Shown: positions 3,001 to 64,000 of the stretch, piece by piece | Numbering within the stretch: position 1 is the stretch's first letter | Layout of the letters: each line of letters begins with the position of its first letter | Position numbers and translations under genes: made by a program | Notes under the pieces: model-generated | The model's database searches: none | Seen by the model: the letters and a program-made list of their open reading frames with translations, nothing else | What the model was told of the DNA's origin: nothing | Assembly: GCA_045837725.1 (NCBI GenBank) | Contig: JBEWZL010000263.1 | Coordinates: forward strand, 186,001 to 250,000 | Source of the DNA: Vermamoeba vermiformis | Taxonomy: Eukaryota | DNA: 64,000 nt | Direction: 5' to 3'

Positions 3001-4934
3001 TATGTCTTGTCCTTGTTGCCTGGAAACAGACCCAAAGCATTGATCCGTCACAGTGCCCCCACACAGGCACAACCAAAGATGAGCAGCACAACACCCAACA
3101 CCAAGACGAGTGGTGGCATTTCATCCTTTCAAAGCATCTCTGCGAGTGTCAGTCCTAGCCCCAAGAAAGATGCACTAAACAAGTCTGGTCCTAATTCACC
3201 AGCCACGAACTCCATTGAGAAGAAAGCAGTGCCTCTCAATCCTCTCTACTTGGAGGCTATTGCTCCACGTCAGCCACTGACTGACAACAAAGAGAAGTGC
3301 TATCATCATCACTGTCCCAAGTGCAGAGAATATCATCACGTTGAAGTTAGATTCACGTGCCCCACATGCAGGTATGCAGCACTGATGCACACCATTGCTA
3401 GCGATCGGTATCTAATGTGCTCGACAGGAAATTGATGACGCAAGGCAAGCTGTCCACGTGTGACATTGCAGCTAGTCCCAAATTGACGTGGGGTGACTTG
3501 ATCAATCACAAGCAGAAGCTGTTGTGCGAATATGGTGACATACAGTCGTACCTGCTACAAGACTTGTCAGAAATGAATCAAAAAGCGAGCAAGTTCAACG
3601 AAGTTGTCGCAAGGTTCCCCGCACTGAAGAGCTTGTGGACTAGCCACGCAGACTTCCAGAAATCATTCCCTATCCTCCGCGAAGTCGTAAGTAGTTCCGC
3701 ACTGTGTCACGTGGAGCTAACTGTCTCGCAGCACAATCAATACCAGGTAGAGTTCTACTGCGCCAATTGTACGACAGCACTGAGTACCACCAATGTGCCT
3801 GAGCCTGTGTACAAGTTCGATCCGCAAACAAACGCCTGGGCTAGTTTTGTTCAAACTCTGCACAATCTATTGGTACGTGCAATTTAATTGCGTGAAGTGC
3901 ATGCTAACGGCACTTTAATAGATCTACCTTGAAATTCGACGAGATGAAAATCCACGCATTCAGCCCGGCTTGCCAGATCTGAACCAGCACTTGAAACTCA
4001 AAGAAATGGAGCTGAAAAACAATCAAATGTACGCGTTAATTGCCACGAGACATGTGCTAACAACTTATCTCAGGGCATTGAAAGTGAGCGGCATCAGTGA
4101 CGTGACACTCTCCGTGGTCAACACGCGACTGCACGACGCGAGCCAACAAGACTTTGTGGCCACAGAACTGCACTCGCGCTACATTGTGAAGCACATGGGC
4201 GCTGAACAGTTGCAGCGTTATCGTGAATTCGGTCGTGTGCTCGGCTACGCCATGGTCAACAGAGGCACTGCGTTCTTCAGTGCAGCACTGCCGCTGTGGA
4301 AATATCTCACGAACAGACCTATCACAACACTGGATCTGTACTTCATGTACCCGACACTCTACGACGTAAGTAATTTTGTTATGATTCATGAACGTGCAAA
4401 ACTAACGTGCCCGCGTTGCAGAACTTGCTGCGCATATTGCCTGTACAAAATGCGTTGAAGTACGAGCTAGCCAAAATACTCGCCAAGTGGAAGTTGTACG
4501 ATGAAGTGGAGCCAGGGCTGAAAGAGATTGCAGCAGGTCTGTTCGAAGTCATTCCCGCGGGCATCATTGAGCGACTGTCACCGCAAGAGCTCGAAGAACG
4601 GATCAACGGACCATTCAAACTCGAGTACGACGAGTTCAGGCGCTACATTCAGTTTGAAGGCGCATTTGCCAAACAACCGCCGCAACAAGACAAGTTCTGG
4701 GGCTTTTTCAACAGCGTGTCACAAGCAGTGCGTCAAAAGATGTTATATTGCATGTCAGGGCAGCTGCGATTGATACCCGAGCAGAAGTACATCATCGAGT
4801 CTAAATCAGCGGACAACGACCAGGCGTTTGTGCCTAAACAACGGAAATTATTATTGCCGCCGCACGATGCGTCAGGGGCGTTTGATCGCAGTACAACTGA
4901 AATTATGAAGTTTGTCAATTCAATAAGTACGTAA
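1..4934 (+). CDS. Large multi-exon protein (5' end outside window): RRM/KH-like repeats, Cys/His zinc-ribbon region, degenerate C-terminal HECT-like domain
   Basis: ORFs 28-615, 623-889, 989-1216, 1213-3435, 3417-3887, 3970-4458 and 4407-4934 join across short GT-AG introns (e.g. 3372-3427). RRM-like VRLSNIP...AYVHLKS and LRVINLP...AFV; CPKC...CPTC; HECT-like YREFGRVLGYAM, LWKYLTNRPITTLDL, GLFEVIP...SPQELEERING, FWGFF. Frame is open from base 1. Confidence 0.7.
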
Positions 4935-5046: not shown

Positions 5047-6747
5047 CTATTGTTTAGTTGGTCGCAACAAGCAAGCTTTTTTCTTAGCATTTTTGTTAGT
5101 GACGTAATCATAGCAGTATTTACAGGGTGCTGCTGGGTCACACCAGCTGAGTCTGCGCGAATTACTCGTAGTTGGTCGTGATTCGCCGTCATCAACCACC
5201 GTGATCTTGGCTCGTTTTTTGGGTCGTTCGTTGTCAGATCCAGATGACACCTCTTCAACGTCCGGACCCTTTTCAGTATCCTCACTACTATCACTTTTCA
5301 CTCGCGATGATTCTAGTACTGGCTTCGATGCTAAACTGCGTCGTATTGCAGCGAGTGTCATGGTCAAATGTTCTTTGCGATAAGTGACACTGCCGTAGCC
5401 TTCGTTGATTTTCATGCGACACGCCAAACGCACCGCCCCAGCAGCGATGAGTTTCGGTTGAATCCAAATCTTACACGCTGCGAACTCGACAACAAAGCAC
5501 TAATCGGTCGTTAGTCACATTGATATTTCATTCAACTACTACTCACCCAATACTTCTGCGTGGCTTGGTCTCGAAATGCATTGATCAACTCTGCATCGGT
5601 GATTCGTGGCGAATAGACCTGACATTCAAAAGAGTGTTTTTCGTGCAAATGACGCGCGTCCAGTGTCATCGTCTTGGGCTCGAGCAGCGGCGGCCAACTG
5701 CAGATAATATCTCTGGTGAAGCATTGTTAGGATCAATCAATCACGGTGTCAAGTAGCACGTACTCGGCGAGGTCAAATGAGTTCCTAGCGTTCATATAGA
5801 GCTCCACATAGTGTTGTTCCGAGTCACCAATCCGCGGCCACTTCAGTCCACCGTACCACAGATGTTCATGGGTCTTCTTCTTGTTCAACTCGTCAATACT
5901 GTTGGCCTTAAGGGGTACTAATATTTGGTGCACAGAAGTGAGTTTTTGAAGTAATTGTGGTGCTGTGGGTGAATTTCCGAACGACAGAAATGCGATGGGC
6001 TGTGGTTTGGCACGACTGGTGTCAACTTGAAATATCTTTGAATGAAGAGTGCCGCATAGTAATTTCACACTAGTGTCGCCTATTATAATAATTCGATAGA
6101 GGTTGAATGTTAGGCGATATTCTCCGAGCAGTGGGGTGCCCTCTAAACTCAGATCCAGCGGCATGTGTTCGTGGTTTCCATGGATAATGATCGCTGTTTG
6201 ACCTGTGAGCTGATCTACCTCTTCATCTGTGTCAATTTTAACGAGATTTGTGCTTAAGACGATGTAATCTAGCGGGTTGAACGAGATCGCGGGACTTCCT
6301 AAAAAGGAATTGTCAGGATCGCTGCAGGTAAAGCTAAAAGCTTACCTAATAGGCTCAAAGCCACTATAATATCTTTATCGTCCTTGGTATTGACGGCAGG
6401 TTGTTGCACGATTGTTATTTTAAAGGTCTGTTTTGTTTTGTTTTGGGCCAATAGCTTGTCAATGCGCTCGAGCTCAAAATCTAACAATTAAATATGATTA
6501 ATATAAACATATTGATAATAAAATTGAACTTACTTTGCCGTGGAGTTTGCGAAGCTTGTCCAATATTATTATTTGAATTTTTATCCGCCTTGTAATTATC
6601 GTTCGATTGAATAGTCTCTGGTGGACGTTCCTCAGGTCGATCTCTAAATATTAAAATTAATATAATAATTATTTGGAGGGTTAGTGCTTACAGCGAGTAC
6701 CCAGCTTCTAGATCAAACGCTTCGTCTTCCATGTGTGACCAAGACAT
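5047..6747 (-). CDS. Uncharacterised multi-exon protein with a domain shared with the gene at 62-64 kb, an NLS-like PKKRAK and a Cys-rich tail
   Basis: ATG at 6747 (MSWSHMEDEAF). Exons include ORFs 6299-6487, 5733-6164 and 5047-5433, with introns 5698-5763 and 5500-5546. Motif WYGGLKWPRIGDSEQHYVELY. Confidence 0.65.
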
Positions 6748-6936: not shown

Positions 6937-8688
6937 TTAAAATAAGATTGAATCGTCTTCTTTGCTTCCAAAAAGAATTGCAAAATTGCATTGTTTTCTG
7001 AGAGCCACCAAGTGATCTCGCCACACTGAGATATGTGCCGCGGACTTGACTTTGATTTTAAAATATTTCAAGTCATATAGCGCTGTTAGGTGCATGATCG
7101 AGGGCAAATCATCGGGTTCTAGATCGCACCGTTGAATGGTCAAACAATTCAGCCCGTGCAAGGTGCCAATGGCCTCAAAGGTCTTAGCATTCAACTTGCA
7201 GTTAGATAGTTCCAGGGCCTGTAGTCTCGATAATAGTGACACGTGTTCAAAGGCACAAATGCTCGGATCTTGCGATGGTGCGGCAGAGATGTAAATTTTC
7301 TTCAATTTGGTCAATTTTTTGAGAATTTCTTCGTAGCCCACTTCAATCTCGACATTCTCCAAGTGCAGGCGCGCTAAAGTCGTTAATTGCGTGAAATCAG
7401 CGAGCTTGAATTGTTTGGGGTTGGATGCAGGCGATGACACGTGCAACGACTTGAGCCACGTTAATTGTATGATTGGATCGACATCATCATAGGCATAGTT
7501 AAGCACTATAACATGATTAATTAAGAATGTGCTCAGTAGCCAATAAAACATCCGGAACATACCTCCGAGGATGGTCAAGTGCGAGACAAATGTCAGGGGC
7601 AAGAAGTTGCTGGGCGAGAGATCTTTCATGCGATTGACGCGCAGACTGCGGAGCTTTGTCATTCGAGTGAATGCGTGCAGTATGTCAGCGGTCCAGTGCA
7701 AATGAAACACGTCCAAAAATGTCAAGTTGGCCGCGGTTGTCAAGTACTCTATTGGCTGCGGAATGTTGCTGTCGAACCAACTCAGCGTCAGTTCTTGCAG
7801 ATTGGTCAAGTTCGTGAACTGGTGCCAATTGGTCACGCCGTCAGTGTAATGCAGCGCCAGACACTTGAGTGCGGTCATGCGTGCCACCTCGTCCATGTCA
7901 ATCTTGTGAAAGGAGTTCCAGATCTTGAACTTGGTCAGGTTGGTATATAGTTCTATTTTAATAGGCGAGTTCTGCACGGGGTCATTGTCGTCGTAAAACA
8001 CCAGACTGTGCAGCCTCGTGCAGACTGTCAGACTTTCGAAGAATGTCGCGTTGATCGGTGAATTGACTAACAGGCGCAGTTGTGTTAATAGGCTCATATT
8101 GCTCTCGTTGAATACGAAGCTGCCGTTCAATGAGGTTAATTTGCGCATTTGATTGATGTATTGCAGCACGCCTCGATCCACCGTGTCCAAATATTTGTCG
8201 AAGATATTGAACGAGTGTAAATTCTGTAATCGCGTCAATCCTTCTAATTGAGTCGTCTCCGTTGAACTGGACAGCATTGTTAATTTTTGTAAGTTGATTA
8301 AATTGAATATTTTTGAGTAGAAATTCGGATGTAGTTTTCTCATAGAGCAATCGAGTTCTGTGACGGAAATTCGCACATAATAATTCCAATTCTTGCTGAC
8401 GGTGCTTAAGTGAAATAAATTCCACGGGGAGATGTAGCCCAATATGTGCATAATTATTTCTTTTGGAAGATCATGGATCGTTCTGTCCATTTCGATGTCC
8501 ATCATTACATCTGCATCCTGTCGTATTTAATTAATAAGTGACATGAATTTTAAACACGTCGGACGCTCTAAAAATTAATTTGTTAAATTTGAATTTAATT
8601 TTAAAATTGACTGAAAAATATGGAGTCATTTTTACAAGGAAATTCACATGTATATATCGTTATTAATAATGTAAATATTTACCTCCAT
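6937..8688 (-). CDS. F-box/leucine-rich-repeat protein
   Basis: F-box IHDLPKEIIMHILGYI...LSTVSKNW followed by many LxxLxxLxL repeats. Probable 2-codon first exon (ATG GAG|GTAAAT at 8688) and an in-frame intron near 7507-7560. Confidence 0.85.
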
Positions 8689-10410: not shown

Positions 10411-12258
10411 ATGGATCTTCTTCTTGAATCGATCCCTTTGGAATTACAACAATTAATATTCTCTAAAATTCCTTTCAAATACTTCTAGTAAAAAGTCTCT
10501 GCAGGCCATGATGCAAATAGCTTTTCAACAAAATTAATTGTTCGTCGTACGCCCTATTTAAAGACGGCAGGCAAATAAATGTAAAAGCTATTATTTTTTA
10601 CTAATTTTTAAAAATTTATTCAGCGTGAGTCTTGTTTGTCGACGGTGGAACAAGTTGTTTTGGCAAACGAGAACCAGTATCGTGCTCCACAAAGACACAG
10701 GGTTTCGATATGAAGCTAAACTCAACAACGAAGATGAATTCAATGCATTGTTGACGAAACTAAGACCAGAACTCATCGAGAGAATTGCCCAACAAAACGA
10801 CTCGTTCTTGATCTCAAATCTGGACAAGTTCAAAAACCTCACGAGCTTCACGGAGTACAAACGCAAGGGGGTAAATAATCGTGCGGAGGAGAACAATGTC
10901 CAGATCTATTCAACACTGAAGAACTTGCCCAAACTGAAGCACCTGGATCTTCAATGTATGTCTTCGATTTCAAACTATAACCATGTCTTTGCGTGCAAGT
11001 CTTTAAGAGCAATGTTTCGTACTGACGCTATTAACGTACAGTTGAGAATGCTGCACGCGAAGAAGAGCTATTTGAAATAATAGCCGCGTGTACTTCACTC
11101 GAAACGCTCAGTTTTAAAGTGACGCACGGCTATTATTTCACCGGCCGTACCACGCCCTATTTAACCAGATTGAAGCGACTGAAAGACTTGAACTGGCCCA
11201 TGGACAAAAATAACTTTAAGGAGCTGGCTGATGCTGGCATTCAATTGACCAAACTCATATTCAACCACTCGCACGAGGACCTCCAACACATCTCTTTATT
11301 CACGAATTTGAAGTCCATTGTGATGTGTATGTGCAATCGATAATACTACAGCACCTATTCTAATCGTACTGCGGCTCATTTTAGACTGCAACAATACGTG
11401 TAACACGAAGACGATTGAAGCACTAGCGGCTCTAACAACGTTAGAAGAGATCGATCTTCCCTATCTAGCGTATGACTTACTTCCAGACCTGCAGAAACTG
11501 AGCTCGTTGAAAAATCTGAAGCGATTCACCATGTACGGTACCACTCAAGATCTAACCCAAGGGCTCGAACAGGTAATAATAAATCTGTTACTATTTGCCT
11601 ATCAAGTGTAAATGACGCGTTGTTGATTAGAAAGGATCGCCGTTCAGCTGGGTAACAAAACTGCCCTCGTTGAAATGTCTGCAGGTCAATACATTAGGCC
11701 ATGGTTTGCCAGACAATTTGAGTCAATGCACGGCCCTCAAAGAGCTGAAAATTAACGTCGAGACTATGGACGAGATGCTTGTATTAGTGCAACTGACGCA
11801 GCTTGAAGATTTGGTAATAGAGGAGGGAAACAACTTCAAAAACATGGCGGATGTGGTACCTCGACTGACACACTTGAAACGTTTGACCATCTCTTTTGGA
11901 TTTGGGGATGATTTGATGGAGTTGTCGCGTTGGAGTCAATTACAGGCGCTGACTCGTCTCGAGATAGAAAATATAGGCGATGTAACTGAAGATGAGATCT
12001 TGCGCCTCATCGCAGCAATGCCGAATTTGAAGCAGTTATTCCTTCATGGAAATCGTATTGCGGAACTAAACACCGATAGAATACCAAACACGAGCATCAA
12101 GTTCATTTCAACGCTCAGTGAGGCCGATCGGTTTTGGATGTGCGAATATACGAAGCACATTCGAGACACTGTTCATTGGCGCTTCTTTGGTAAGATACAT
12201 TCAATCATATGAATATCACAGCTAAGCGTATTTAATAACAGACACAAACCTCTATTGA
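10411..12258 (+). CDS. F-box/LRR protein, tandem paralog 1
   Basis: First exon MDLLLESIPLELQQLIFSKIP splices to VSLVCRRW (F-box). LRR exons follow (ORFs 10625, 11119, 11670). Last exon DTNLY*. Confidence 0.85.
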
Positions 12259-25785: not shown

Positions 25786-26371
25786 TTGTCTGAATAATAG
25801 TAAAAACTTGTCAGTCATATTTAAAAATTATTTTTACTCAATATTGTCGCTCGATAATATCTAGGCACAATAAAAATAGAAGAAATAAAATTTTTCAACC
25901 AATTGGAAAGCAAATCCAAACGTGTGTGGGATCTGCTAGCAGACTCACGATAGCCGTGCACGTCTAGTTCAATACTTACCCGCCGTGTATTGTTATGCGC
26001 GTGTTGATAAGTTGTAGTGAGTGATATTGAAAGTCAATGAGTTAATGAACTTCACGATCGAGTACACGCACAATAATTTTAACACGTGCTTTTTTGTAAG
26101 CAAGAGAATTTACTTCTGTGTTCGTTCGCACGCGACAATGGGGGAGACTATTCGAATCGAAAGCAAATTATGTAAAACCTGTCAATCAATCAAAAAAATT
26201 GATCTCTGCCAACGACAAATTTTTGTTTAAACAAAAGCGCGGATTACAACCCACTAACGTTGCGTTTCCAAAGTTTTAGGGAATAATTAGAGGGAGGTAC
26301 ATAACTTACAGCTCAGAGCACCTACGTGGACGTCAACCGACGCAAAAGAGGATCGCAGGACAAAAAATGAA

Positions 26372-31170: not shown

Positions 31171-33755
31171 TTAGAGCTTGTCGAGGTACTTGTCCAGCGA
31201 AGGCAACTGTTGAGGCATGCCCTTTCGCTTGCGGATCGCCATCACCGTGTTGTAGGCCAAGGTGCCCTCAGTGAGCGGGTCACCTTCGATCGGTTTCCAG
31301 TGATCGAACACAAGTTGAGGGAACGCTCGACCAGAAGTATTCGAGGCCAACTCTTGCATGAAGCCGAAGCTCTCCATGACCGGCAAGTAAGCCTTGACGA
31401 CCACAATGGGGGAAGTGCCCTTCTGCTCTTCAGCGAACACGAAGCCGCGTCGCTTGGAGAGGACGGAATAGATAGGACCCATCGCGTCACGAGTCGTTTG
31501 GATCTCAGCCAAGTAGATCGGCTCGACCAAGACTGGCTTAGCTGTCAGTTGAGCAGCACCGAGCACTCGTTTCGTAGCGGGAGCGACTTGACCACTGCCT
31601 CTGTGCGCAGGATCTGCGTGCACCACAACGTCTTGCAGATTGAATCTGACACCACGAAGAGGTTCACCACAGAGCACACCTTGAGAAGTAGCCTCAACGA
31701 AACCGAGCTTGACGCTATCCTTGATCTCGTGCAAGTACTGAGCACCGTGAGTTTCATCGACGAAGATGTTGGAACCAGCTGTTTCAGAGCCTTCAGGACC
31801 AAAGAACCAGATCTTCTTGGCAGTGAAAGAGTCGAAGAAACCGTGCTTCTCGGAGAGAATGCGAACGCGCTCCTTGTGGTCGTAGACAGGCAAATTGTCG
31901 CCTTCGAGGACCTTGAGAAGATCGTCGCCCAAAGGTTCGGCAACTGCGTACAGTCTGTTGTGCTTGTTCTGTGACTTGGCCATGCACTGCATCGAAGAGG
32001 GAGCTGAGATGCTTTCCATGAAGTTGACTACTGGAGTGGACGTAGTGAACTCGACACCATTCAAGAAGGTCTTCAATTCAGACAAGAGAACTTCAAGGTG
32101 CAATTCTCCTGCGGCACCAAGGACGTGCTCACCAGTGCTTTCTTCTACCGTGACCTTGACGCATTGATCTGCGTTGGAGAGACGACGAAGAGCATCGACG
32201 AACTTGGGAAGATCTTGAGGTCTCTTGGGCTCAACAGCGACGCGTACGACTGGACTAACAGAGAACTTCATCGGGGCAATAGGGTAAGCAGTCGGAAGCG
32301 TAGACAGAGTACCTGATTTGCGCAAGTACTTGTCGATACCAACAACGGCCACAGTATTACCGCAAGGGCAAGAGTCAACTGTCTCGACGTTCTGGACCAT
32401 CATGAGCACCAAACGGTTGATGCGCTTGAGAGATGATTCCTTCTCCACCTTGCCACCGAGCGTGTCAGGGTGTTGATAGTCAGAATTCATCACGAGCACC
32501 TTGTCGCCAGATCTGAGAGTGCCAGAGAAGACACGACCAAAAGCGTAGAAACTCTTGTTGTCTTCAGCTTCGACCATCTTACTGACGAACATCATCGCAG
32601 GACCGTTAGGATTGCACTCGCGAATAGCAACGCCAGCTTCATCATCCAAAGGACCAGTGTAGAGCACTTCAGCGCGGTATCTTTGAGCTTCGCGCGGGCT
32701 AGGCAGACGAGTGATGATCATCTCAGAAAGAGCGTCAGCAGCAAAGAGGAACTTCTGCATGACACAAGAGAGGAGATCGTTGCCCATGTACTCTTTCTCC
32801 TTAGTAGAAAGCTTGATGTTCAGCTTGGTGAGGACATTCTCGAGCTCGGCAGTGTTGTTTTCGCTGATAGAACTGAAGATCTTGTAGATTGGCTCCAATA
32901 CTACCTTGCAGAAGAATCGTTCGAGCGGTTTGCCTGATTGCGAAAACGGCTTGTCGGTGAAGCGCTTAGTCTCATCGTCGTAGAAGTGGTCTCCCCAAAG
33001 TCTGTTCAAGATCTTCTCTGGGTCGACGTTTCTCTTCTTGGCGTACATTCGAGCGAACTGAGGAAGGGTGAACGCCCAACCTTGTTTGCCCGAACCAAAA
33101 GACACGTTGCCTTTGCGCGGATCGAGTTCGATGCTTCCCATGGCCTCATCTTCATAAGTCGAGAGAATGATGTTGACGTTTTGAATCTCCTTGTCGAGCT
33201 TACGGTACAAGTCTTCAGGCGAAAGTTTCAACTCCATAATGCCTCTGTCGACCTTGTTGACGTGCAGGACTGGTCGGATTCGCTCAGCGATAGCTTGGCG
33301 AGTGACAGTCTCAGTTTGGACGCATACTCCTTCGACGCAATCGACGACTACTAGCGCACCATCGGTAATTCGAAGAGCGGCAGTGACTTCAGAGCTAAAG
33401 TCGACGTGGCCAGGGCTATCTACCAAGTTGACCAAGAAACGGTCTTTTTCGTGATCGAAAAGGAGGGAAACTCCAGTTGACTTGATAGTGACGCCACGTG
33501 CCTTTTCTTCTTCCTTGGTGTCCATACCTCGCTTTTTGCCGATATCTTCTCGTCTAATAAGGCCTAAAATAGAGATTGGGGTCAATATTATTTGAAAAAT
33601 TCAAATTTGAAAAATTATTTACCTGCTCCAGCGAGGAGGGAATCAACCAAGGTTGTTTTGCCGTGGTCTACGTGCGCGATGACCGAAATGTTTCGGATTT
33701 TGTCTTGCTCGTGCATGAGCTTTAATACCTCAGCGGTATTGTCGTTTCGTTTCAT
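31171..33755 (-). CDS. Elongation factor 2 (eEF2)-like GTPase, divergent
   Basis: [81 protein letters not shown] and YLDKL. One intron at about 33563-33622. Confidence 0.93.
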
Positions 33756-38344: not shown

Positions 38345-41300
38345 ATGACAGACACCAGTAAATCAAAATCGCCCAAAGAGATCTTGGCTAAAATAGAAAG
38401 CAAACTTAAATCATCAGCTAAAACTAATACAACGCCAGTAGTTAAACCATCTACTACTACAGTAAATAATGGCTCGAGCACCTCTGCTGATTTTGACTCG
38501 CGACGAGCAACATTAACCACCACGGAGAATCCAGTTAAAAATACGCCCATTCCGGTCGGGCATTACAAAGCATATAGTACTGCTACATCGACATTATCTA
38601 GTAGCAACTACAGTGTTGATAATACGAGTCCAAAAGATTCTATGATGGATTCAATATCATTATCGCAATCGGGCTCTCCCCGAGTTCTTTCAGCTTCTCC
38701 AAAGGGGTAAGTAAAATAATGACATAACATATATAAAATTATTATTTTCACAGTGGCTCAAATTTATTTTTCAATCCGAGTTGGATGCGTTGAGATTCAG
38801 CCGTCTTTCTCTGAGAAGCTTCATTTTGCTCAATTTTCTGTTATATTGATTATTAATGAGCTTTTTAGCGACTCTTGGGTATCTGTGTCACCAAAAACCG
38901 ACGACAAAACCAAATCCGCTCTCACAGAACTCAAGTCCCGTATTGACAATATGACGTTAGAGCTTGCTCGAACAGAATTTTATGCAGAGGTAATATACAT
39001 AATTTTATGAGATATTTGCCTTGTCATTCTTGAATTCCTCAAGTTTCTAGAACTATCGATCCGAAAATCTTTTTCGTTAAAACTTGACTTGATTACATTC
39101 TGCGGATATTGATTGTGCGAAACAAAATTTATGCTAATTTTCAATAAGCCATAATAGTTCTCATTGATTCCCATTGACTTTCAAGATACTTTCGAAAACT
39201 CGTTACGCTGTGAATTGTCTGTCACTTTGAATTCGAGAAAGGACTGTAAATTATTCAAAATATTAATATTTATTTTTAAATATAGCTCGCTGAAAATTCT
39301 GTCGTGCAAAGTGTCGAGCAGCAACACCAATTATTGAAGAGTGTCAAAGAGTCCATTGCTGTCAACAAAAGATTGAACGAAGAAGTAGCAAGACGGCAGG
39401 TAAAATATTAGCAATAATAATCAACGCAAGACCATATGATCGTAATAGCTGTTAGTCCGATGAACGTAATGTTAAAGAATTTCTATTTTAGGAAACAATC
39501 AACACAAAAATACACAAGCACGCCGAGTTAACTGAAATGGCCACGTCAATTGATAAATTATTCACGCAACTCAAATCATGCAAAGAATTATTGAAGTCAA
39601 AAATAGTCGAGGTTCAGGTGCGTGTTTGACTTTTGCCACAGTCAGTCGTAATTAACATTAGTCTAATATAATTATGATATACAGGGCGGATACAGCTCGA
39701 AGAGTGCGGAGCTACGCAGTTCATCGCGAAAGATAATGTTGAGCGGAAGAAAATCTAGCAAGGAATCAGAGGTACTTTTGAACGATTAATTACCCGGACA
39801 CAAAATATTTTGACAGCAAATATGGTGAAATTCTGTTAAGACTGTCATTCGCGGCACTGATACGTGTCGGCGGAGCCATTTTTAGCATTTTTCTGCTCGC
39901 GAATCTTTGCTAAAGATACTCACAAAATAATGTCAAAACGCTTCTGCGGAATTCATTCTGACGGCTTTAATTTATTAGCCGGACTCACCGAGGCGAGATG
40001 TTAGCTCTATCAATAGAATTGTAGCACTGCAGTCAATTTCACATCACCTCGAAGATTCGTTGTACTTGTACAAAGTCGTCAAGTTACAGAACGACAAACT
40101 GACGTACTTTTTGGAGAAATTGAATGCCAATCAACAGCAACAGGAAGCCAAATTGCAAGAGCTAAACGTACGATTAATCGCGTATTGTAGCCTGTAATTC
40201 TCACACTTTTGTGTAGGAACAAGAAGCACGGTTTAAAACAAACGAAGAGCTCGAGAAAGTACTCAAATCCAAGCTCGTTAATTTCACTGAACCGTTTCAA
40301 CAACTGATTAAACTACTCGACAACGACGACTTGCCGCAAAGTGACAATCAACCCATTAATGAAAAACTGACTCAGATTTGCGCCAAGATTAAGGCTGAAA
40401 ATGAGCGTACGCGCAAAGAGATCAATGAAATCTTAAAGAACGAGCCCGGCATCAAAATACAGGTACCAAATTTACGCTTGATGATGACTTCAGAGACTAA
40501 ATTTTGGCTTAGGTTCGGTCTACTGATGTCGTAGATTTGGCCACGCTTGAAGAGCGCGAGGAAGATGACGACACAATCAAGTTCATTAAAGGCCCGAAGG
40601 GAGAGGCCATTGTTCGAGCGGCCAACATTGACAGGTTGGTGGAAAGACTGACATCGTCGACTTATTCAGGTATGTTGCAGTGCTAGTAGACATCTGGATG
40701 AATAGCCATAGGCAGTCGTAATGCCCGGATTACTAATACTCGTAATCTAGATGTGCTGTTCCGTGACTCGTTCTTGCTGACTTACCGGTCATTTATGAGC
40801 TCCACAGAGCTGATGGAGAAGTTGATCGATAGATACTGCGTGACACCTGTACAGAAAGATCTTTCAGCGGCAATTTTGGAAGCTTTGAGACAAAAGCAAG
40901 TGCCGATTAGATCCAGGTACGTGAGATCCATTTTCAAAATTAGAATTAAGTATACTAATGATGATATCAAATATAGAGTACTGAGTGTCATTAAGCGATG
41001 GATTGACAAGTATTTCTTCGATTTCTCGAACCAGCTCTTCGAAAAGATGTTTTTGAACTTTTTGAACAACACCGTTGCGAAGACTGGATACGAACAACAA
41101 GTGCAGCCATTGATATCGCTCTATAATAGAAAGGTACTAGCCCTCGCCTACATACAGCTCGATACTAATTTGCTCTACTTAAATAGAAACAAGGAATAGA
41201 CGATGAAAAACAACCTAATAACCCACCACCTCCAGAGCCACTTTTACCCATGTTCATCAAGTTCAATGGCATTTGTGACCTGCATCCGATTGAGGTATGA

Positions 41301-44706: not shown

Positions 44707-44807
44707 CTCTTCAAACGCTTTGATAAACGAAGTAAAGCTGGTAGGATTTTGGTGTTTTTTTCTAGCGCCGATAAATTCCGGGAAAGGGCCTGTGCCTTCG
44801 TTGTCCC

Positions 44808-47800
44808 ATGGCAAAATTATTTGTAAAAACCAAAATGAATGAACAACCACAGCTAGGCGCCGAAAATTGCGACAAGAAGCGAAAAAATCCGTTTTCGGAC
44901 TCCTCCCAACCAAAGAGACGGAAAATGGATTCAGATTCGGAGGCTAGGATCAAAATGAACTCCTTAAATGACGAAAAAATGGAAGAAAATATGGGCGATA
45001 TTTTACCTTACGAAATATTAATTCAAATATTCCAAACTCTTTCTCCTGCGGATCGAGCCAAGGCATCTGTCACTTGTCATGCTTGGCGAACCACAGCGCA
45101 GGATGATTCTTTGGCCTGGTACCCTTTATCTCGGTACAGATTGACGGAATCTCTTAGTAACTACAGATATAATAAATTGAAAGCACCTGGCTCGTACAAA
45201 ACATTGATCGAAGCACGAACGGCGAACATCACTTCCGATCTGCAGTTTGATGGGATTTTGCAATACATTGGCGTAGATCCTTACAATCGAAGTAATCACT
45301 ATTACTGGGTAAGTCGGTTAATATTATCTAATATCGAACTAACATTTTAACAGGTCAAATTTAACTCTGAGATCCGTCTATTCAGCGGCACCTCCAAATT
45401 TATGTCTGACGATTGGAATTCTGATGCATATCGGTACTTTTTACACGAAGAGAAGCATCACTATGCACCTGGTGTATTTGAAATGATTATAAAAGGCGAA
45501 GTGAATGTCAGGAAGTACGCGTTGCTTTGGATTTGAATTGTTACTAACGTGGCTCAAAGAGTTGAACGGCGTGTGCGAAATGGAGAAACAATCGGACAAC
45601 GAGGAAGTTTGCTTAATATAGCAGCGAAGCATTTTTTGGACCAAGAAATGAAGCGCCAGCCGAAAAATAACTGGGAGAAAACTTATTTACGGCAAGGTTA
45701 CAATTCGTTATTGTCGTACACGCCACAGGTAGATATTATATATGACATTTCGGACTTTATTTTTGATGGCTTCAAATATTGCAGGTGGATGCAGTTGTGA
45801 CAGCCCAAAACGAGCGATTGCTCGGGGTCAAGTTGCACGACTACCAATTACGCGCCATAAATTTCATGGTGTCTGTCGAGCAAGAGCGCAAGCGTAAGGT
45901 TTAATCGTGCACGGTGTATGTAATAATTTTTTTCTTAGAACTGAAATTCTCTCCGTTGCTCTTCTTGCCGATGAGCTATTTGTTAGTCAATCCTTTAACC
46001 GCTGATAATTCGTTGGTTCTGCCCGAGGATGCTGAGAAGCACGATATGACGTTCACTGTGAAAGGTATGTTGACACGTGTCAATGGATCCACTGACATTA
46101 TGCGCTATCAGGCGGTGTTTTGGCAGATGAAATGGGCCTCGGAAAGTCACTCGAAGGTTCGTGCATGCATTTTTGATATCGTTCGTTGCTAATTTATGTA
46201 GTTTTGGGACTCATTTTACAACGTCCAATGATTCAAAAGCCCGATGAAGACAAGCTCTTCGTGTCCAAGGCCACACTAAGTAATCAACAGCCTTATTTTC
46301 ATCGTCACAATCTCTCACATATTCGTTAGTTTTTTGCCCCAATCACTTGGTCCAGCAGTGGCAAGATGAGATTGAAAAGCACACTCAACCCAAGCTGTCC
46401 GTGCTAACCATCACAACGATTCATCACGTCAAGAAGTACACGCCGCAAGATGTGATGGACGCTGACGTTGTGATCGCTAGTTACAATTTATTGCAAAATC
46501 GTAATTATCTCAAATATCCAAACGGCGAAGATGACGAGAAACCTGAACTTCATCCGAATCGCAGATTCCAACGGATCGACGCTTTATTGGAGGTAAGTAG
46601 CACCGTTTTATTAGTTTTACTAAGTTAACCTCGTGCACGATAGGAGAACCGTAAGAAAAAGAACGCTGAAACAGCTAAAGGAGTGATATTGGAGCACTAT
46701 TTATGGCACCGCATTGTGCTGGACGAAGGCCACGAAGTGATCAAAGAAGACAAGTTGGTTAAAATGCTGCACAATTTCAGCTGTACCCACAAATGGCTCG
46801 TCTCTGGCACGCCTTTTCCACGAGGGTCAGTCACTTTGAGTATTGTTTTCTTTGAACCTTTTTAACAATATGTAGGAGCGATATGTACAAAGTGAGACAT
46901 TGGCTCGACATTGCTATTCTCCAGGGCGGGGAGCAGGAGTACCCTCTTGGTGTCAACTACAGTTCCGTGTACTACATGCCAAATAACCTGGTGCCCGTCG
47001 AGTAAGTATTGCAAGAATGGATCATTTGACTCCGAATCAATTACTAAAGTACATCCTCCTAGTCGTGCTTTGGGCGATTTCTTTATTCAAAAGTTGCTGT
47101 GGAGAAACACAAAGGTATTAGAACTATAATTGAACGTGTCAACTGAACGAACATTACTTCTTAGAAAAGTGTCAATGTGGAGTATGAAATGGTTTCAGTG
47201 AAGGAAGAGATCAAGTCCGTTACATTTACGCCGCTAGAGAAAGCAATTCACAGCCATTTTTCATATTATTATTGCGACAAAGAGCAACGAGCCAGTTGTT
47301 GTGTCATGCAAAGTGAATGGGGCAAAACAAATGAAGAGCGCAAGAATTATTTCATTGCTTTAAGGCAAAAATGGATTAACGAGGTGCAAGGTGAGCTCGA
47401 CGAGTTGAATACAAAGCACCAGTTCTACAGTACGAAGTTGGAAAAGCGTAAAAAAGTGGACCCGACAAACACGGTTGGCTTGAACGCTGCAAATGACTTT
47501 ATGAGGAGCTATCCCGGATTTAACACCGCGTTAACTGAGCGATTAGCTCGGCATAAGGCGATTTTGAAAGAATTTCAAAGTTTGGTAAGATCCGGATCAA
47601 CAAACGAGCGGTAAAATATTAATAATTTTACTTATAGGAGCTCGATGAAGACAACGAAGAGGTAGGAATGGACATAATATATAATGTAATTGACAATTTT
47701 AGGGCCACACGACCAAACTACGCGAGCTGGTGTCGTACCTGAAAGAGCTGTTCGAGCGAGATCCGACAAAGCGTGTCATCATCTTCTCGCAGTACCACGG

Positions 47801-48526: not shown

Positions 48527-50876
48527 ATGAATCGTGTAGTATTAGTGTCGTGCTTATTAATTTTAGCTAGCTTAGCCAGCGCTGAGTGGAGTAAGTAATT
48601 TGTTTAATACGGACTATTGGATCTGCTCGTTAACGAATCAAATTGAATAGCGCTTCCACTGCCATTCGTATCGAATGTATTCAGCTCATCAATGGTTCTT
48701 CAAAGAGAGCCTCAAAGGTAACCCGATCCACTCAAATAGATCGTTACACTACATTGATCCCACGAAACAATTCTTTTAACATTATTTCGCAGCGCAAAAA
48801 TATGGGGATGGTCTAAAGTAGCAGATAAAGTGAATTTGACGCTTACTGATGCCTCGCAGAACAGCGAATACTACGAGGCAACTGCTGGCTCGGATGGCAA
48901 GTAAGTTGGACCATTTAAAACAGAGTCGGGCATCCGTGTATTTAAATCTATTAATCGTACCGATCCCCGCTTTATTTATTAATTTATACTAACGCGTCAA
49001 TCTCGCTGTATTTGACATTCGATTGACATGATCTCGTATCAACTTCAGATGGCTCATCACCTTATCGCCGAAACAAGCTGGTATGATACGGCTGTGATTA
49101 TTTATGAATTGTTTTAGCTAACTGAAAGCAGGCGGTCCTTATTCAATCGTGATCCAAGGAGCCGCGGGAAACAGCTCAACATTGACAGATGTGCTGTTTG
49201 GTGACGTTTATTGGTGCTCTGGACAATCAAATATGGAGGCAAGAATGATTTAAAGGATAATTTAACCACTAATTCAGCCACCCTAATTGTTTATTGTAGT
49301 TCTCTCTATCGGCCGCATTCAACGGAACAGCCGCTGCAGCCGTGGCAGGAAACTACACGAACATCAGATTGATCCGCGTGCCTCGCATTAACTACCCCGT
49401 GCCTTATGTACGTTATACTTCGAGATACTTGTAGCTGTCATTGTTGACACCTGTCATCATTACTAGGATTTGTGGAGCCCCAATCCCGTGCTCAATGCCA
49501 CTACTCGCTGGTACCAAGCAGCTACCAGCGTCGTGTCGAGTTTCAGCGCAGTGTGCTGGTGGAATGCAGTGCACATGTCAGACGAGTTGAACAACACTGT
49601 GCCGATCGGTCTCATTGGCAACTACTGGGGCGGCACTGCTATTGAGCGCTGGTTGAGTCCTCAGTTGTACAACGCTTCAGGGTGTGCGGGCCAAAGCACT
49701 TTCATCGACAATCAAGCGACCATCTTCAACGCAATGGTGTACCCGTTCATTCCCATGGCACTCAAGTCCATGTACTGGTACCAAGGTGAAGCTAACGGCG
49801 GTGCTCCAGACTACTACAAGTGCATTCTGCCCAAGTTTGTTGCTGACTACCGCACTCTGTTCAACTCAGGTACGTGATCTGCTGCAACCTATCGATTCTT
49901 TCACAGTTTTAACCTAAGGCCTTGTACACAGACATGCCGTTCACGTTCGTGCAACTAGCTCCCATGAACTACACGGGAGATTTCTGGCCCAAGTTTAGAG
50001 CGATGCAATACGACGCGTCGTTGTTGATCGACAAATCGTGCCTCGTCAGCACTACTGACCTCGGTGACTTGGACTCAGGCGGAGGTCCTATTGTACGTAT
50101 TAAGAGTCGTTCTTAAGGCACAACTGACATAGTTGATAGCACCCTCGTATTAAAGAGCCTGTTGGCTATCGTGCTTCCTTGTGCACAAGAAGACTTGTGT
50201 ACGGCAAGAGCGGTGTTTGGAACGGTCCTTTGCCTTTGGTACGGTACTTTAGTACGACGAAACACGTTGTAATCTATCCTCTTAGTGTGCTACAGCTAGT
50301 AACGACACGAATGAGATCACAGTGTCATTTGTTAAAGACACGATTGGCACTGTAAGTAACACTTTCCGGTCAACTTTTTTACAGCTTCTGACGAATGACA
50401 GGGTCTGGTATTCAATGAGCCTTATTGTCCTAATGGCTACGGACTAGCAACCTGTGGCTTGCCCTGGTCGGTGTACAACGGCACGGCGTGGTACAATGCA
50501 ACATTCACAATGAGTGACGACAAGACTCAAGTGATTTTGAGCGGTGATTATATCATCTCAAAGTACGTGCCATGCAATTAACTGGCTTGATTGAGCACTA
50601 ATGATCTTTATCAATAGCCAATCTACGATTCAAATCCGTTACGCGTGGGGTTCGTACTCACAAGCAACGCTGTTCAACTCGGCCAATGTCGCATCACCAG
50701 TGTTCGCCATCAAGCTGTCAGAGTGTCCTGTCGAACCACCACTCGTCGAGCCACCACTCGTCGAGACCCCGCAGAGTCCGTCGAACTCTCCTTCTGCGCA
50801 CGCCAGCAGCGCAGTTACCATACTGTCACTCGCCAGCTTGCCTTTTGTATTGCTGGTCCTTGCGTTCCTTGCTTAA
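48527..50876 (+). CDS. Sialate O-acetylesterase (SASA/SGNH), secreted with a GPI-like tail
   Basis: MVLQRE, GDVYWCSGQSNME, FSAVCW, WGGTAIERW, WYQGEAN, VQLAP, HPRIKEPVGYR and IRYAW. Pro/Ser stalk and hydrophobic C-terminus. Confidence 0.92.
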
Positions 50877-54598: not shown

Positions 54599-55090
54599 GC
54601 TTAATGTTCTAATAAAATCCATTTAGATGCTTAAAGCGAAGGTGCAGCAAGAACTATTGTTACATAAATGGGACTTGATGTAGGGTCAAATCAACGAAGG
54701 AAAATTCCTTTATAAAAATAAAAAGAGTTGCTATATTTAGAAATCAAAGAAAAAGGCATGTACATTCGGAAAACCCGAACGTACGCAATTACGGTACGAC
54801 AATACAACAGCAGTTGAGTTCATACATAGTGTTCGGTATGTTACCAACGTAAAACGAAGCAAAATTAAATTTACGAGAATTCAGATCGTAGAAAAGCTTT
54901 TAAAGAACTCTTTAAACTCTATCGTTTTAAGCTGAAATTACCTTAAATATTTTAATCAGAGGTTTAAAATTTAGAGCATTGAACGAACAAAAGTGTACTA
55001 AAACCAAGTACAAATACTGAAAACAATTTAGGGATAATTTTTAAAATATTAATCTACCATATTAATAAGTAGTATTTTAGAGTACCAGTA

Positions 55091-55705
55091 ATGGGCCAAG
55101 AGAATAAACGGCAACCGAAATCCGATTGCGTCGGCAACGTTTTAGCTAAAATTAGTACTGTGGTTATTCCTATTCTGATTGTCGGTCACGACAAGGTGGG
55201 CAAGACCTCATTAATTAGGAGATTCGTGTTTGGCGACAATTTGGAAGAATCTAATGCAGATGCGGATGCATCCACTAATGGTCTCCGAAAAAGAATAGCA
55301 GTCGACAACACTCCTCAAACACTGGAGTTATTCGATGAAGTAGGTGGACATAATTACGACGTAGAGGCACTTCATACAGCCATCAAGAACGTAGAAGCCT
55401 TTGTGATCGTGTACGAAGTGGATTCGCCGCTCAGTTTTGAAAAAGTGCAAGAGAAATACAACCTTATTGAGAGCGTTACTGAAGGCACTTCAGCGCCTAT
55501 AGTCATTGCAGCCAACAAAGCCGACACGGACAAATTCCATTGGAAGGTCAGTACCGAGCAAGGTAAAAGCTTAGCGGATCGGATGGCGCACGGCGAATAC
55601 ATCGAAGTGAGTGCCAAGAGCGGGCATAATGTCAACAAGTTGTTTGAACGCGTTGGAGAGCTCGCTGTAATTAAGAGAAGACCGCCGCCGCCTCTGAAGA
55701 ATTAG
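55091..55705 (+). CDS. Atypical Ras-family small GTPase (intronless, no CaaX)
   Basis: GHDKVGKTS (G1), LFDEVGG (altered G3), NKAD (G4) and EVSAK (G5). N-terminus MGQ. Confidence 0.88.
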   Translation: MGQENKRQPKSDCVGNVLAKISTVVIPILIVGHDKVGKTSLIRRFVFGDNLEESNADADASTNGLRKRIAVDNTPQTLELFDEVGGHNYDVEALHTAIKNVEAFVIVYEVDSPLSFEKVQEKYNLIESVTEGTSAPIVIAANKADTDKFHWKVSTEQGKSLADRMAHGEYIEVSAKSGHNVNKLFERVGELAVIKRRPPPPLKN

Positions 55706-61807: not shown

Positions 61808-61970
61808 TGTTTGTTTTTCTATTTTAATTGTGTGTGAATAATGCTATAGCATTTCTGCAAAACGAAATAAAAGAGAAGACAACAAGTGGTTTGACGGTAC
61901 TCTCTGTACGACAGAATCTTAATTTATTGCCCGCTTACTATTCGGCTTGTTCAAGCGGAGTTAAACTGTC

Positions 61971-62024
61971 GTGATACGCGCCAGCAATGTACGCGCCATC
62001 AAAACTTTGGAAACTAATGTCCAA
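61971..62024 (-). repeat. 54-bp exact inverted repeat, copy B
   Basis: Reverse complement of 53805-53858 with no mismatch. The first flanking base differs on both sides. Confidence 0.95.
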
Positions 62025-62076
62025 GATGGATCCGTTGTTTTCACATTTCGACAACAGGACTCCAATGCGAACTATA

Positions 62077-64000
62077 TTATTGGTGATATTCGCTGTACTG
62101 CCTCGAACTAGCCTTTGACGGCATAGTAGTCTCCATGACGAGTTTTCTGAGCTCTGTCAGCGCTGTATTGAGTTCAACCTCGTTCAAGATGATCGTCTCC
62201 ATTTGCTCGCGGGTGATTTGGCTGAAACAAAGTCTTATTAAGACCAACTCTATTAAAACATAATTGAGATATTACGTACCATAGGGCATAAAGTGAAGTG
62301 ATGCCGTTGCGTTGAAAGTCGTGGTAATAATGTTCCATATTCAGACCTCGAAAGAAGTTCAACATGTCAGCAGGCAAAGTACTTAGCGTGCACGTGATTG
62401 GCTGTAATTGGCGCGGTGTGGGGTCTTGAACGGTAATGTACAAACACAAAATTGTTTTTCGCTCTGAAATTTCACTTTCGTTAGATCTGACTAACACTGT
62501 TATCGTATAATCGCTTACCTAGCATTTTGGGTCCAATACAGAGCAATAAGCCATTATAATGCATCTTTAATGCCTAAATAAGACAGTTAGATCCTGGTCC
62601 AATTAACGCAAGTAGCGGATGTGGCTCACCCAAAACGCTTTGAAGTTCGGGTCCCAAAATGCTTTAGGCAACGAGTGCTTATCGGTGAGCACGGGTGATA
62701 TTAACTGAATGCAGTAGTGTCCTGTCGGCATGGTCTGTGAATCACAAATGCACATTTCACGTGCCATCAACAACTTTGGCAACTCATTGATGTGGCTGCA
62801 AATAAAGGTTAGCACCGACATTACCAAATTAGGCAAGAGACTTACGGGATCGCTTGAATGCGCGGGTCATTGGGTATGAACAGCTCCATGTACTGTTGCT
62901 TGATCGTGCCCAAACCAGGCCACAACAGCCCTCCGTGCCAAGCTGGGGGTGGCTCAATGCGTGTCAGCACGAGTGGTCCGTCAGCAATGTACGGCAACAA
63001 CACTTTTTGCTGCGCTTTGGAGCTGTCACTGGCCTTAGTCTTCTCGGAACTGCTGTGTGATTGGCGCAAGTTGTCGGGAGTTCTGTTCCTTGAAGGCGGG
63101 TACAACTGATTTTGCTCCGAATAATTCACACCCTCACTGCTATTGTTGGTGTTGTTATTCGTATTATTGATGTTGTTATTGTTGAGGGCCTGTGTCGTGT
63201 TAGATACTGGGATCATTTTTCCGTCCGGGCCACTGTAATAATTCCATTGGTAATTGGTGTTATTGTTGTTGTTATTCACGGCGTTGTTTATGCGCGCTGA
63301 AGGGTCCTCTTGACTGTCATTAATCGTGATCACATTTTGTTCCTGGTAGCTCGGCACAGCTGCAGTCTGTTGGTGTTGCACTAACGGTGCCATCGTCTTT
63401 GTGACTTTATCAGGACTGACTCTGAAATATTTATCTAATGGACCTATGATACGCGGTGAGGTGCTGTCATTATCGTTGGTATTGTTACCCTCCGCGATGT
63501 TGTTTGAAAATCCCTCGGGGTTCGGCTGAACATGCTGTCTTGGACTGATTGAGGGCGCAGTATTAGTGCCGGGGATGGCATTATTGTTATTGACTGCATT
63601 AGCTCTCGGCATTGGAGGACTATTCGGGGGCAAGTAGCTCTGCTCATCGAGCTCAAAATTGGTCAGTCCAAACTCGCTCGACCTCGCCAAGTCATTGTCA
63701 GGTCTCGTCTGTTGTTCCTGCCCTTGCTGCTGTTCAATTTGGATGTCTGGCACTGCCTGATGATCCGTGTACTGTTGCGTTAATTGTCCTAAATCATCTG
63801 GTGAGTGTGCTGGCGAGGCATGATCTCGCTCAGGCGAGCGATTACTTTGTTCGTCTTGGCCGTATGGCGCAGCTGACTCTTGTGACGCTTGTGACTGACT
63901 GGCGGCGCTCCAATACGACCAGTATTCGTCCGTGCGATAAATTTGGCGGCGCGAGGGACGAGAGTTGGGTTTCAATCGATTCAACTCGCTTTGATCCGCA
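62077..64000 (-). CDS. Putative regulator (5' end outside window): Q/N/S-rich N-terminus, uncharacterised central domain, C-terminal SAM-like domain
   Basis: ORF 62842-63984 is spliced via introns 62796-62845 and 62574-62629. SAM-like FFRGLNMEHYYHDFQRNGITSLYAL..ITREQM. Simplest stop is at 62077; an alternative last exon would end at 61938. Confidence 0.7.

Follow-up and report, generated by a model that had tools for sequence, protein, structure and literature searches.

On its minus strand, the window analysed here, a stretch of 64,000 nucleotides (64 kb) of eukaryotic and probably fungal DNA, carries two genes, A (5047-6747) and B (from 62077 past the window end at 64000), whose predicted products resemble each other over a limited region. 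This raises the questions whether the region is a true common domain, whether it belongs to a known family, and whether it is the DNA-binding domain of a new transcription-factor family, as suggested in the initial annotation.

Similarity between genes A and B

All six peptides quoted in the initial annotation were found in minus-strand frames where they had been placed. Judged by their sequences, genes A and B are true paralogues over a domain of ~140 aa. BLASTP of spliced A against spliced B gave 28% identity over 106 aa (48.5 bits, E=3e-10), a significant pairwise alignment, and A aligned with the independent spliced orthologue P0004 with 26% identity over 137 aa (50.8 bits, E=9e-11). The Smith-Waterman score of A against B was 109, while shuffled sequences scored 27.5 ± 4.7 with a maximum of 54 (z ~17; 0/2000 at or above 109). 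In tblastn searches of unspliced single exons within the window, each domain recovered the other copy (E=1e-4 and 5e-5). No third copy was found in the 64-kb window by tblastn with both domains; the next match, of the B domain in the adjoining HECT gene (3925-4218), was not significant (E=0.14) and was rejected.

Chance, or splice models picked to maximise the similarity, could be suspected from the introns of gene A, which were predicted from sites and frame only, and from the ambiguous loop alignment around the phase-2 intron, but we give this reading next to no probability and regard it as already effectively refuted by these comparisons, since tblastn links the loci without any splicing, no shuffle reaches the score, and the independently built P0004 aligns to A in the same way.

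A W-x-G-G-L-x-W-P motif is invariant at the domain start in A and B. The residues kept in the pairwise alignment are for the most part W, G, P or L rather than basic. One Cys, one His and one Asp are roughly kept in both genes, with which a catalytic role would be compatible.

Gene structures, splicing and expression

The coordinates of all features are listed in Table 1. The splice model of gene A was built with canonical sites and reading frame as the only guides and predicts a product of 479 aa, or of 484 aa with the alternative acceptor of the phase-2 intron. Use of acceptor 5713 would add 5 residues and close a 4-residue gap relative to B; the alignment scores of the 51-nt and 66-nt introns were 108 versus 109 against B and 115 versus 114 against P0004. 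The predicted architecture consists of an N-terminal region of alternating hydrophobic strands, the domain, an acidic Ser-rich tract, the stretch PKKRAK, which we take to resemble a classical monopartite nuclear localisation signal, and a Cys-rich tail, for which exon-by-exon search gave no Pfam match. Gene A has no SAM domain, and its architecture is unlike that of B.

Table 1. Positions of the genes, introns and domains within the window.
Feature	Position	Strand	Description
Gene A coding region	5047..6747	-	six exons; canonical GT..AG model; ATG 6747, stop 5049-5047
Cys-rich C-terminal stretch of A	5113..5142	-	C-x6-C-x2-C and further Cys downstream
P-K-K-R-A-K stretch of A	5206..5223	-	from the sequence; in acidic/Ser-rich tail
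Shared domain in A	5398..5930	-	~140 codons, two introns inside; W-Y-G-G-L-K-W-P at 5858-5838
A phase-0 intron	5500..5546	-	47 nt, GTGAGT..TAG, directly after conserved Trp; column of B intron 2
A phase-2 intron	5698..5763	-	donor GTACGT 5763; acceptor CAG 5698 (66 nt) or in-frame CAG 5713 (51 nt)
Gene B last exon	62077..62221	-	TAA stop 62079-62077
Probable SAM domain of B	62131..62386	-	Pfam matches below cut-off; split by intron 4
B intron 4	62222..62279	-	58 nt, GTACGT..CAG, inside SAM-like region
Shared domain in B	62387..63006	-	153 codons, four exons, three introns inside; spliced model and BLASTP to A
B intron 3	62464..62518	-	55 nt, GTAAGC..CAG; without counterpart in gene A
B intron 2	62574..62629	-	56 nt, GTGAGC..TAG, phase 0, directly after conserved Trp
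B intron 1	62796..62845	-	50 nt, GTAAGT..CAG, phase 2, 14th codon after E of 'EL'
Gene B large exon	62846..64000, past window end	-	open frame; X7 contigs cover exon

The large exon of gene B is mostly N/Q/S-rich low-complexity coding sequence, and its tail is 100% identical in P0001 and 82% in P0002. The last ~54 codons (63006-62846) open the shared domain, with W-H-G-G-L-L-W-P at 62940-62920. All four introns of gene B are supported, and the gene is spliced and expressed. At the three domain introns, RNA-type contigs of X7 skip 55, 56 and 50 nt (intron 3 in two contigs, introns 2 and 1 in one each), and the spliced orthologues P0004 and P0017 read across all four introns. Intron 1 is bridged by 2+2 raw RNA reads (X21, X23), which join 62786 to 62855 with 18 letters (68 minus 50), and intron 4 by two raw X23 reads, which join 62220 to 62283 with 4 letters (62 minus 58); the raw RNA reads over B were few (7, 6 and 10) and 90-95% alike. 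At the 50-nt intron, the joint in X7 is reported one base off and with non-canonical ends, which we read as a synonymous third-position difference in the relative represented by X7.

The layout described for B was supported, with a long disordered N-terminus rich in N, Q, S and P, followed by the domain and a probable SAM domain. The orthologous protein has 1436 aa; nearly all of the B protein is predicted to be disordered, and the folded parts appear to be only the shared domain and the adjoining C-terminal SAM-like domain. The latter follows within ~10 residues, with no oligomerisation segment between them. In the B orthologues, a conserved acidic and hydrophobic SIM-like island lies upstream, and P0017 has a KKRK stretch at its N-terminus.

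The SAM fold is a five-helix bundle of ~65-70 residues. Exon 4 of B matched SAM_EPH with 18.7 bits (cut-off 27, E=0.0014) and SAM_2 with 18.1 bits (cut-off 20.5, E=0.0031), and SAM_2 also matched P0004 (17.4 bits, E=0.0049) and P0017 (16.5 bits, E=0.0097). These matches agree in place across searches, and every one lies under Pfam's curated cut-off. In the single-sequence model of the 237-aa C-terminus, helices were placed at 168-175, 179-188 and 212-234, with pLDDT <50 throughout. A SAM domain in B is probable.

Conservation of intron positions

The four domain introns of the initial annotation were reproduced by independent canonical GT..AG models in both genes, and its statement that two intron positions are identical held exactly for one of them. 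The phase-0 intron directly after the conserved Trp occupies the same alignment column in A and B. The phase-2 introns share the phase and the codon count from the EL anchor (14th codon), but in optimal alignments they lie 4 columns apart with the 66-nt model of A, or 1 column apart with the 51-nt intron ending at acceptor 5713, and they fall together only when the gap in the loop is set after the intron. A shared phase-0 intron column together with a same-phase intron within 0-4 columns argues for the paralogy of A and B.

Search for relatives of the domain

By all sequence searches performed, the domain is lineage-restricted and unrecognised in a 2025 copy of Pfam, in PDB sequences and in the ESM Atlas, in line with the initial annotation; none of the three gave a confident match to a known non-DNA-binding family either. 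With spliced P0004 and E values up to 10, Pfam returned only SAM_2, SAM_1 and MUCL1, and nothing on the shared domain; P0017 (E up to 1) gave sub-threshold SAM only, and the exon-by-exon search the weak SAM match and nothing else. Searching PDB sequences with exon 4 of gene A yielded three matches, all with E of at least 0.45, and with the C-terminus of P0004 (E up to 10) one match, the SAM domain of EphA5 (E=0.45). A PDB profile search (E up to 10) with alignment A3 found two IQGAP1 matches with E of at least 1.2. This alignment has 7 rows and still includes the read-through tail of P0006; alignments A1, A2 and A4, in which the exons of gene A formed separate rows, were dropped because MAFFT misplaced the fragments. 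No usable match was obtained from the ESM Atlas with exon 4 of gene A and the P0004 domain as queries.

A HMMER search of 1,835,955,588 representatives at E<=0.001 gave 7 matches, five of which are close orthologue fragments. The other two, P0007 and P0008, matched in 9 and 6 stretches and were rejected, after inspection of the sequences, as artefacts of tandem repeats. For exon 4 of gene A, a word-index search found no relatives among longer proteins (0/549 candidates), and a search for related loci found none in metagenomes (0/312 stretches). The exon-1 tail of B matched 2/599 metagenome stretches, both spurious, as the two contigs have 66-68% GC and show 16-18 matching residues followed by a stop; prokaryote genome contigs contained no related loci (0/170 and 0/592). 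Most database relatives (P0001, P0002, P0003, P0005, P0006, P0009 and P0016) are prokaryote-style ORFs that end at the first intron, and the domain therefore escapes routine searches unless spliced models are used. For the remote-homology search of the spliced form, the orthologue P0004 served as query.

Constraint and predicted structure

Between B and P0017, the domain is 84% identical with 152/153 positions aligned, compared with 55% in the upstream disordered part (237/331 aligned) and 71% in the SAM domain and tail. The domain is clearly more constrained than its surroundings in B. Its charge is close to neutral (pI 7.9-8.8, net +1 to +4); nucleic-acid binding may still be compatible with this mild positive charge and a pI of up to 8.8.

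AlphaFold2 on alignment A3 gave an unusable model (mean pLDDT 40.0; no residue >70, 34/153 at 50-70), and so did the 237-aa C-terminus alone (mean pLDDT 31.6). In both low-confidence models, strands fall on the same segments, among them three in a row at the C-terminus, and there are 6-8 strands and 1-2 short helices. They weakly suggest a beta-rich domain, which may be globular. A Foldseek search with the first model gave PCNA as best match (E=0.45, TM 0.21), which is meaningless.

Possible functions of the domain

Our preferred explanation, held tentatively and at a little short of an even chance, is that the domain would bind proteins or peptides as an adaptor module in two nuclear scaffold-type proteins, and that B would, in addition, associate with itself by way of its SAM domain. 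An interaction function is favoured over DNA binding by the near-neutral charge and the conserved positions, mostly W, G, P and L, by the domain's recurrence in two architectures that are unrelated, and by the remainder of B, which consists of disorder and SAM, a layout typical of scaffolds. From PKKRAK in A and KKRK at the N-terminus of P0017, we infer a nuclear location.

In our estimate, it is unlikely that the domain belongs, as a highly diverged member, to a known fold that does not bind DNA, either a distorted beta-barrel of the SPOC / MED25-ACID / Ku type that reads acidic or phospho-peptides, or a fold like that of UBC/UEV; its fold would then not be new. The UBC fold has an HPN motif and a helical C-terminal half. 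No HPN tripeptide occurs in the domain sequences of A, B and P0004, and the three predicted C-terminal strands speak against such a half. By eye, the order of the conserved segments fits either family, a lead only; as two unrelated folds both 'fit', this test is without weight. The SPOC review PMC10111866 describes a distorted barrel of seven strands in which the number of helices varies and whose members show very little similarity in sequence, and the strands and short helices of the low-confidence models come in an order compatible with it. Against these folds stands that SPOC (PF07744), Med25 (PF11232), Ku (PF02735) and UQ_con (PF00179) are absent from the Pfam list of P0004 at E up to 10, and that sequence and profile searches at E up to 10 gave no such PDB chain.

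The proposal of the initial annotation, an undescribed domain for sequence-specific DNA binding in a transcription factor that has the layout of p63/p73 or LSF/CP2, with a disordered N-terminus of the activation type, fared worse, and we consider it distinctly improbable. The step from the layout of B to a DNA-binding domain or a transcription-factor family found no support. The order of a disordered Q/N-rich region, a beta-rich domain and a SAM-like domain is real, the NLS-like basic stretches and the pI of the domain fit, and, the models being unusable, an Ig/p53-like fold, a beta-sandwich with a basic surface for DNA contact, may yet apply. Yet neither P53 (PF00870), CP2 (PF04516) nor any other DNA-binding family was listed by Pfam for P0004 at E up to 10. 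The DNA-binding domains of p53 and CP2 are longer than the ~140-150 aa found here. Furthermore, the SAM domain of B sits directly behind the domain without an oligomerisation segment, A and B have kept hydrophobic residues, Gly or Pro and not basic ones, the net charge is low, and the paralogue A has no SAM domain at all.

A bolder variant, to which we assign a very low probability, is that a fold without solved relative would serve as a DNA- or chromatin-contacting module of clade-restricted nuclear regulators; B would couple this module to a polymerising SAM domain and to SIM-like islands in >1,200 disordered residues, as a fungal analogue of SAM-driven chromatin scaffolds. If the domain were a new fold or a new chromatin or DNA reader, a clade-specific regulator family would be gained, together with an entry point to a very large disordered protein that is featureless in its other parts.

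Similarly little credit is due to the idea that B is a post-transcriptional regulator of the Vts1/Smaug type, whose SAM domain binds RNA and whose shared domain is accessory or RNA-binding, and we judge it to be very improbable. Fungal Vts1 combines a Q/N-rich N-terminus with a C-terminal SAM domain, which B resembles, and the EF-2 encoded in the window has its highest scores with EF-2 chains of fungi. But the matches to SAM profiles (SAM_2, SAM_EPH, SAM_1) are generic and weak, no Smaug-specific region was found, and A is without SAM.

The comparisons and RNA data show the paralogy of A and B, the splicing and expression of B, the constraint on the domain and the lack of a recognisable family, and in the adaptor reading a globular beta-rich fold, a nuclear location, interaction with partners and, for B, SAM-mediated self-association would be added to these. 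At present, the result is a well-documented orphan domain that is real, constrained and duplicated, with expression seen for B. In eukaryotes that are poorly sampled, orphan domains limited to few related species are frequent, and a specialist would be only modestly surprised.

Comparison with known systems

SAM proteins of the Polyhomeotic and Vts1/Smaug types share with B and its orthologue an N-terminus that is very long and of low complexity, and a SAM-like domain at the C-terminus. They have no counterpart of the ~150-aa domain of B, and the SAM match of B is below the cut-off; FCS zinc finger and Smaug regions were not detected by Pfam in P0004 and P0017. With p53/p63/p73 and LSF/CP2, B has in common that a disordered region is followed by a beta-rich domain and then by a SAM-type domain, whereas the A/B domain differs by the missing sequence match, a shorter length, the absent oligomerisation segment and its non-basic conserved residues.

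Compared by eye, the SPOC / MED25 ACID(PTOV) / Ku clan is like the domain in its size of ~140-150 aa, in the predicted mostly-beta structure with few helices and in the putative use as a nuclear module, but the domain differs by having no profile or PDB sequence match to it. According to PMC10111866, sequence conservation within this clan is very low.

Lineage-restricted fungal orphan domains in general likewise have few close relatives, here 5 true matches among 1.84 billion representatives. Unlike these, the A/B domain is duplicated into two architectures, has conserved introns and is clearly more constrained than its surroundings.

Gene models and splicing evidence

The window is eukaryotic, with a G+C content of 43% and short introns (47-66 nt) with GT..AG ends. 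Two of its minus-strand genes, A and B, share a domain of about 140-150 residues, and all peptides quoted for them in the initial annotation were found in the frames given there.

Features of the window with coordinates and strand
Feature	Coordinates	Strand	Details
Gene A	ATG 6747 to stop 5049-5047	-	6 exons, 479 aa
Shared domain, gene A	5398-5930	-	
Gene B	beyond 64000 to TAA stop 62079-62077	-	5 exons in view
Gene B exon	64000-62846	-	
Gene B exon	62795-62630	-	
Gene B exon	62573-62519	-	
Gene B exon	62463-62280	-	
Gene B exon	62221-62077	-	
Shared domain, gene B	62387-63006	-	
HECT match	4392-4934	+	E=1.3e-13
HECT match	3922-4458	+	E=7.5e-4
F-box and/or leucine-rich-repeat reading frame	6937-8526	-	
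F-box and/or leucine-rich-repeat reading frame	11631-12212	+	
F-box and/or leucine-rich-repeat reading frame	13617-14378	+	
F-box and/or leucine-rich-repeat reading frame	44775-45350	+	
Two Ras-family GTPase reading frames and RasGEF N-terminal motif	22109-22543, 55073-55705, 40702-41199	+	
SNF2-related fragment	46284-46628		
SASA-type carbohydrate esterase fragment	49467-49877		

The splice models of gene B are right. Contigs of sequencing run X7, whose type was guessed as RNA, skipped 55 nt at 62464-62518 (two contigs), the 56-nt intron (one contig) and the 50-nt intron (one contig), coinciding exactly with the three introns within the domain. At the 50-nt intron the joint came out shifted by one base, with ends that are not canonical, which we ascribe to a synonymous difference at a third codon position in that relative. 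Among reads declared as RNA-Seq, two from X21 and two from X23 bridged 62786 to 62855 with 18 letters in between (68 minus 50), and two from X23 bridged 62220 to 62283 with 4 letters (62 minus 58). Raw RNA reads over gene B were few (7, 6 and 10 aligned) and only 90-95% identical, and therefore originate from a diverged relative. All four junctions were likewise crossed by two spliced orthologues, P0004 of 821 aa and P0017, which has 1436 aa and derives from a Logan contig of 4.9 kb.

Over 61900-64000, the RNA runs X21-X23, which bear the species label of the best DNA run, were only 90-95% identical to the window, whereas the X7 contigs, under a different label, were 95-99% identical; the species labels therefore span diverged strains or species. 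Metagenomes from water, soil, aquifers and sludge are among the runs that contain the stretch, mostly in small shares that do not point to a habitat.

The introns of gene A were predicted from their canonical splice sites, their typical lengths and the reading frame that they restore. An alternative in-frame acceptor at 5713 would shorten one intron from 66 to 51 nt and add five residues, with alignment scores alike for the 51-nt and 66-nt models (108 vs 109 against B; 115 vs 114 against P0004).

Similarity and intron positions of the shared domain

Spliced A and B were 28% identical along 106 residues (48.5 bits, E=3e-10), and A and the independently modelled P0004 were 26% identical along 137 residues (50.8 bits, E=9e-11). 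Even without splicing, tblastn inside the window linked the two loci (E=1e-4 and 5e-5); a third copy was not detected by this search, the next match having E=0.14. The Smith-Waterman score of 109 was reached by none of 2000 shuffles of the A domain (mean 27.5 +/- 4.7, maximum 54). Judged by these alignments the similarity is real, and its origin by chance or artefact is hardly credible.

Two identical intron positions had been claimed. One of them, the phase-0 intron that follows the conserved Trp, indeed occupies the same alignment column in A and B. The phase-2 intron lies, in both genes, in the 14th codon counted from the E of 'EL', but optimal alignments set the two positions 4 columns apart with the 66-nt model and 1 column apart with the 51-nt model; the intron sits in a poorly conserved loop, and the positions coincide only when the gap is set downstream of the intron. 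The domain in B has an extra intron (62464-62518) without counterpart in A. Jointly, the introns support an old duplication, at a time when the domain was already split.

Family searches and fold

The description of an unrecognised, paralogous domain stands. Pfam gave no family for the domain of P0004 at E up to 10, sequence and profile searches of the PDB gave at best E=0.45, and the Atlas held no usable match. HMMER over 1,835,955,588 representative proteins yielded seven matches at E<=0.001, a library size at which a single-sequence search requires roughly 45 bits and would therefore miss relatives that are less than about 30% identical, among them A-type paralogues from other species. Five of the seven were fragments of close orthologues (P0001, P0002, P0003, P0005, P0006); the other two (P0007, P0008) were rejected on inspection as tandem-repeat proteins, which matched in 9 and 6 stretches.

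Most database relatives are prokaryote-style reading frames halting at the first intron. P0001, P0002, P0003, P0005, P0006, P0009 and P0016 end at, or run into, this intron and appear to come from eukaryotic contigs annotated in prokaryote style, which conceals the domain from routine searches.

AlphaFold2 with a seven-row alignment, mostly of fragments, reached a mean pLDDT of 40.0 and a pTM of 0.37, and the 237-residue C-terminus alone a pLDDT of 31.6. Foldseek on the former model returned PCNA (E=0.45, TM 0.21), a meaningless match. Both low-pLDDT models placed strands in the same segments, with three successive C-terminal strands and one or two short helices, which hints weakly at a beta-rich domain. 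Fits by eye of the conserved segments to a SPOC/MED25-ACID barrel and to a UBC-like fold were given no weight, since these two unrelated folds both fit.

Protein architecture

Between B and P0017, identity was 84% in the shared domain (152 of 153 positions aligned), 71% in the SAM plus tail (72 of 83) and 55% in the disordered part (237 of 331), so that constraint is strongest on the domain. Against Pfam, P0017 matched only a sub-threshold SAM_2 at its C-terminus. The rest of P0017 is P/Q/S/T/N-rich low complexity with a few short islands in the disordered N-terminus that are conserved among P0001, P0004/P0017 and P0005. SAM matches were repeated and co-located, all under the Pfam cut-off (E 0.0014-0.0097), and the PDB search matched the EphA5 SAM (E=0.45); a SAM-like domain in gene B is probable.

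Upstream of the window's end, these orthologues carry, as one such island, an acidic Ser-rich stretch, then D-D-V-[IV]-I, which we take to resemble a SUMO-interaction motif, followed by a basic R-R-S..P-R-R-L segment; a K-K-R-K stretch lies close to the N-terminus of P0017.

Gene A begins with a different region, about 160-230 residues long and with hydrophobic stretches in alternation, for which Pfam, PDB and Atlas gave no match. This region is followed by the shared domain and then by an acidic Ser-rich tract, a PKKRAK stretch and a tail rich in Cys.

Neighbouring genes

A large multi-exon gene with a C-terminal HECT ubiquitin-ligase domain (1213-4934, +) is convergent with gene A. For the reading frames of 740 aa (1213-3435, +) and 547 aa (24184-25827, -), Pfam gave no family at E<=0.001. 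The F-box and leucine-rich-repeat frames suggest a local gene expansion within the 64 kb. The EF-2 reading frame (31171-33600) scored highest with chain 7old_C (881 bits), presumably of a filamentous fungus, followed by yeast eEF2 (835 bits) and chains at 827-830 bits, which we assume to be fly and human; this hints weakly that the window is of fungal origin.

Possible function of the shared domain

No DNA-binding family matched the shared domain in the Pfam search with P0004 at E up to 10. The domain is near neutral (net charge +1 to +4; pI 7.9 in A, 8.6 in B, 8.8 in P0004), conserves chiefly W, G, P and L between A and B, and is part of two architectures that are otherwise unrelated; in B it adjoins the SAM-like domain, at the end of a disordered stretch of more than 1,200 residues. 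These properties lead us, tentatively, to prefer a protein- or peptide-binding adaptor module in putative nuclear scaffold-type proteins, of which B would self-associate via its SAM.

A divergent form of a known barrel-type reader, whose function would overlap with that of an adaptor, is a less likely identity. The DNA-binding transcription factor proposed in the initial annotation found no support in family matches, charge or the conserved residues, and is improbable. A Vts1/Smaug-type RNA regulator is very doubtful. The orphan-domain finding is solid but ordinary, and its value hinges on a structure or a binding assay. As for known barrels, a review describes the SPOC clan as a seven-stranded barrel whose sequence is very poorly conserved (PMC10111866).
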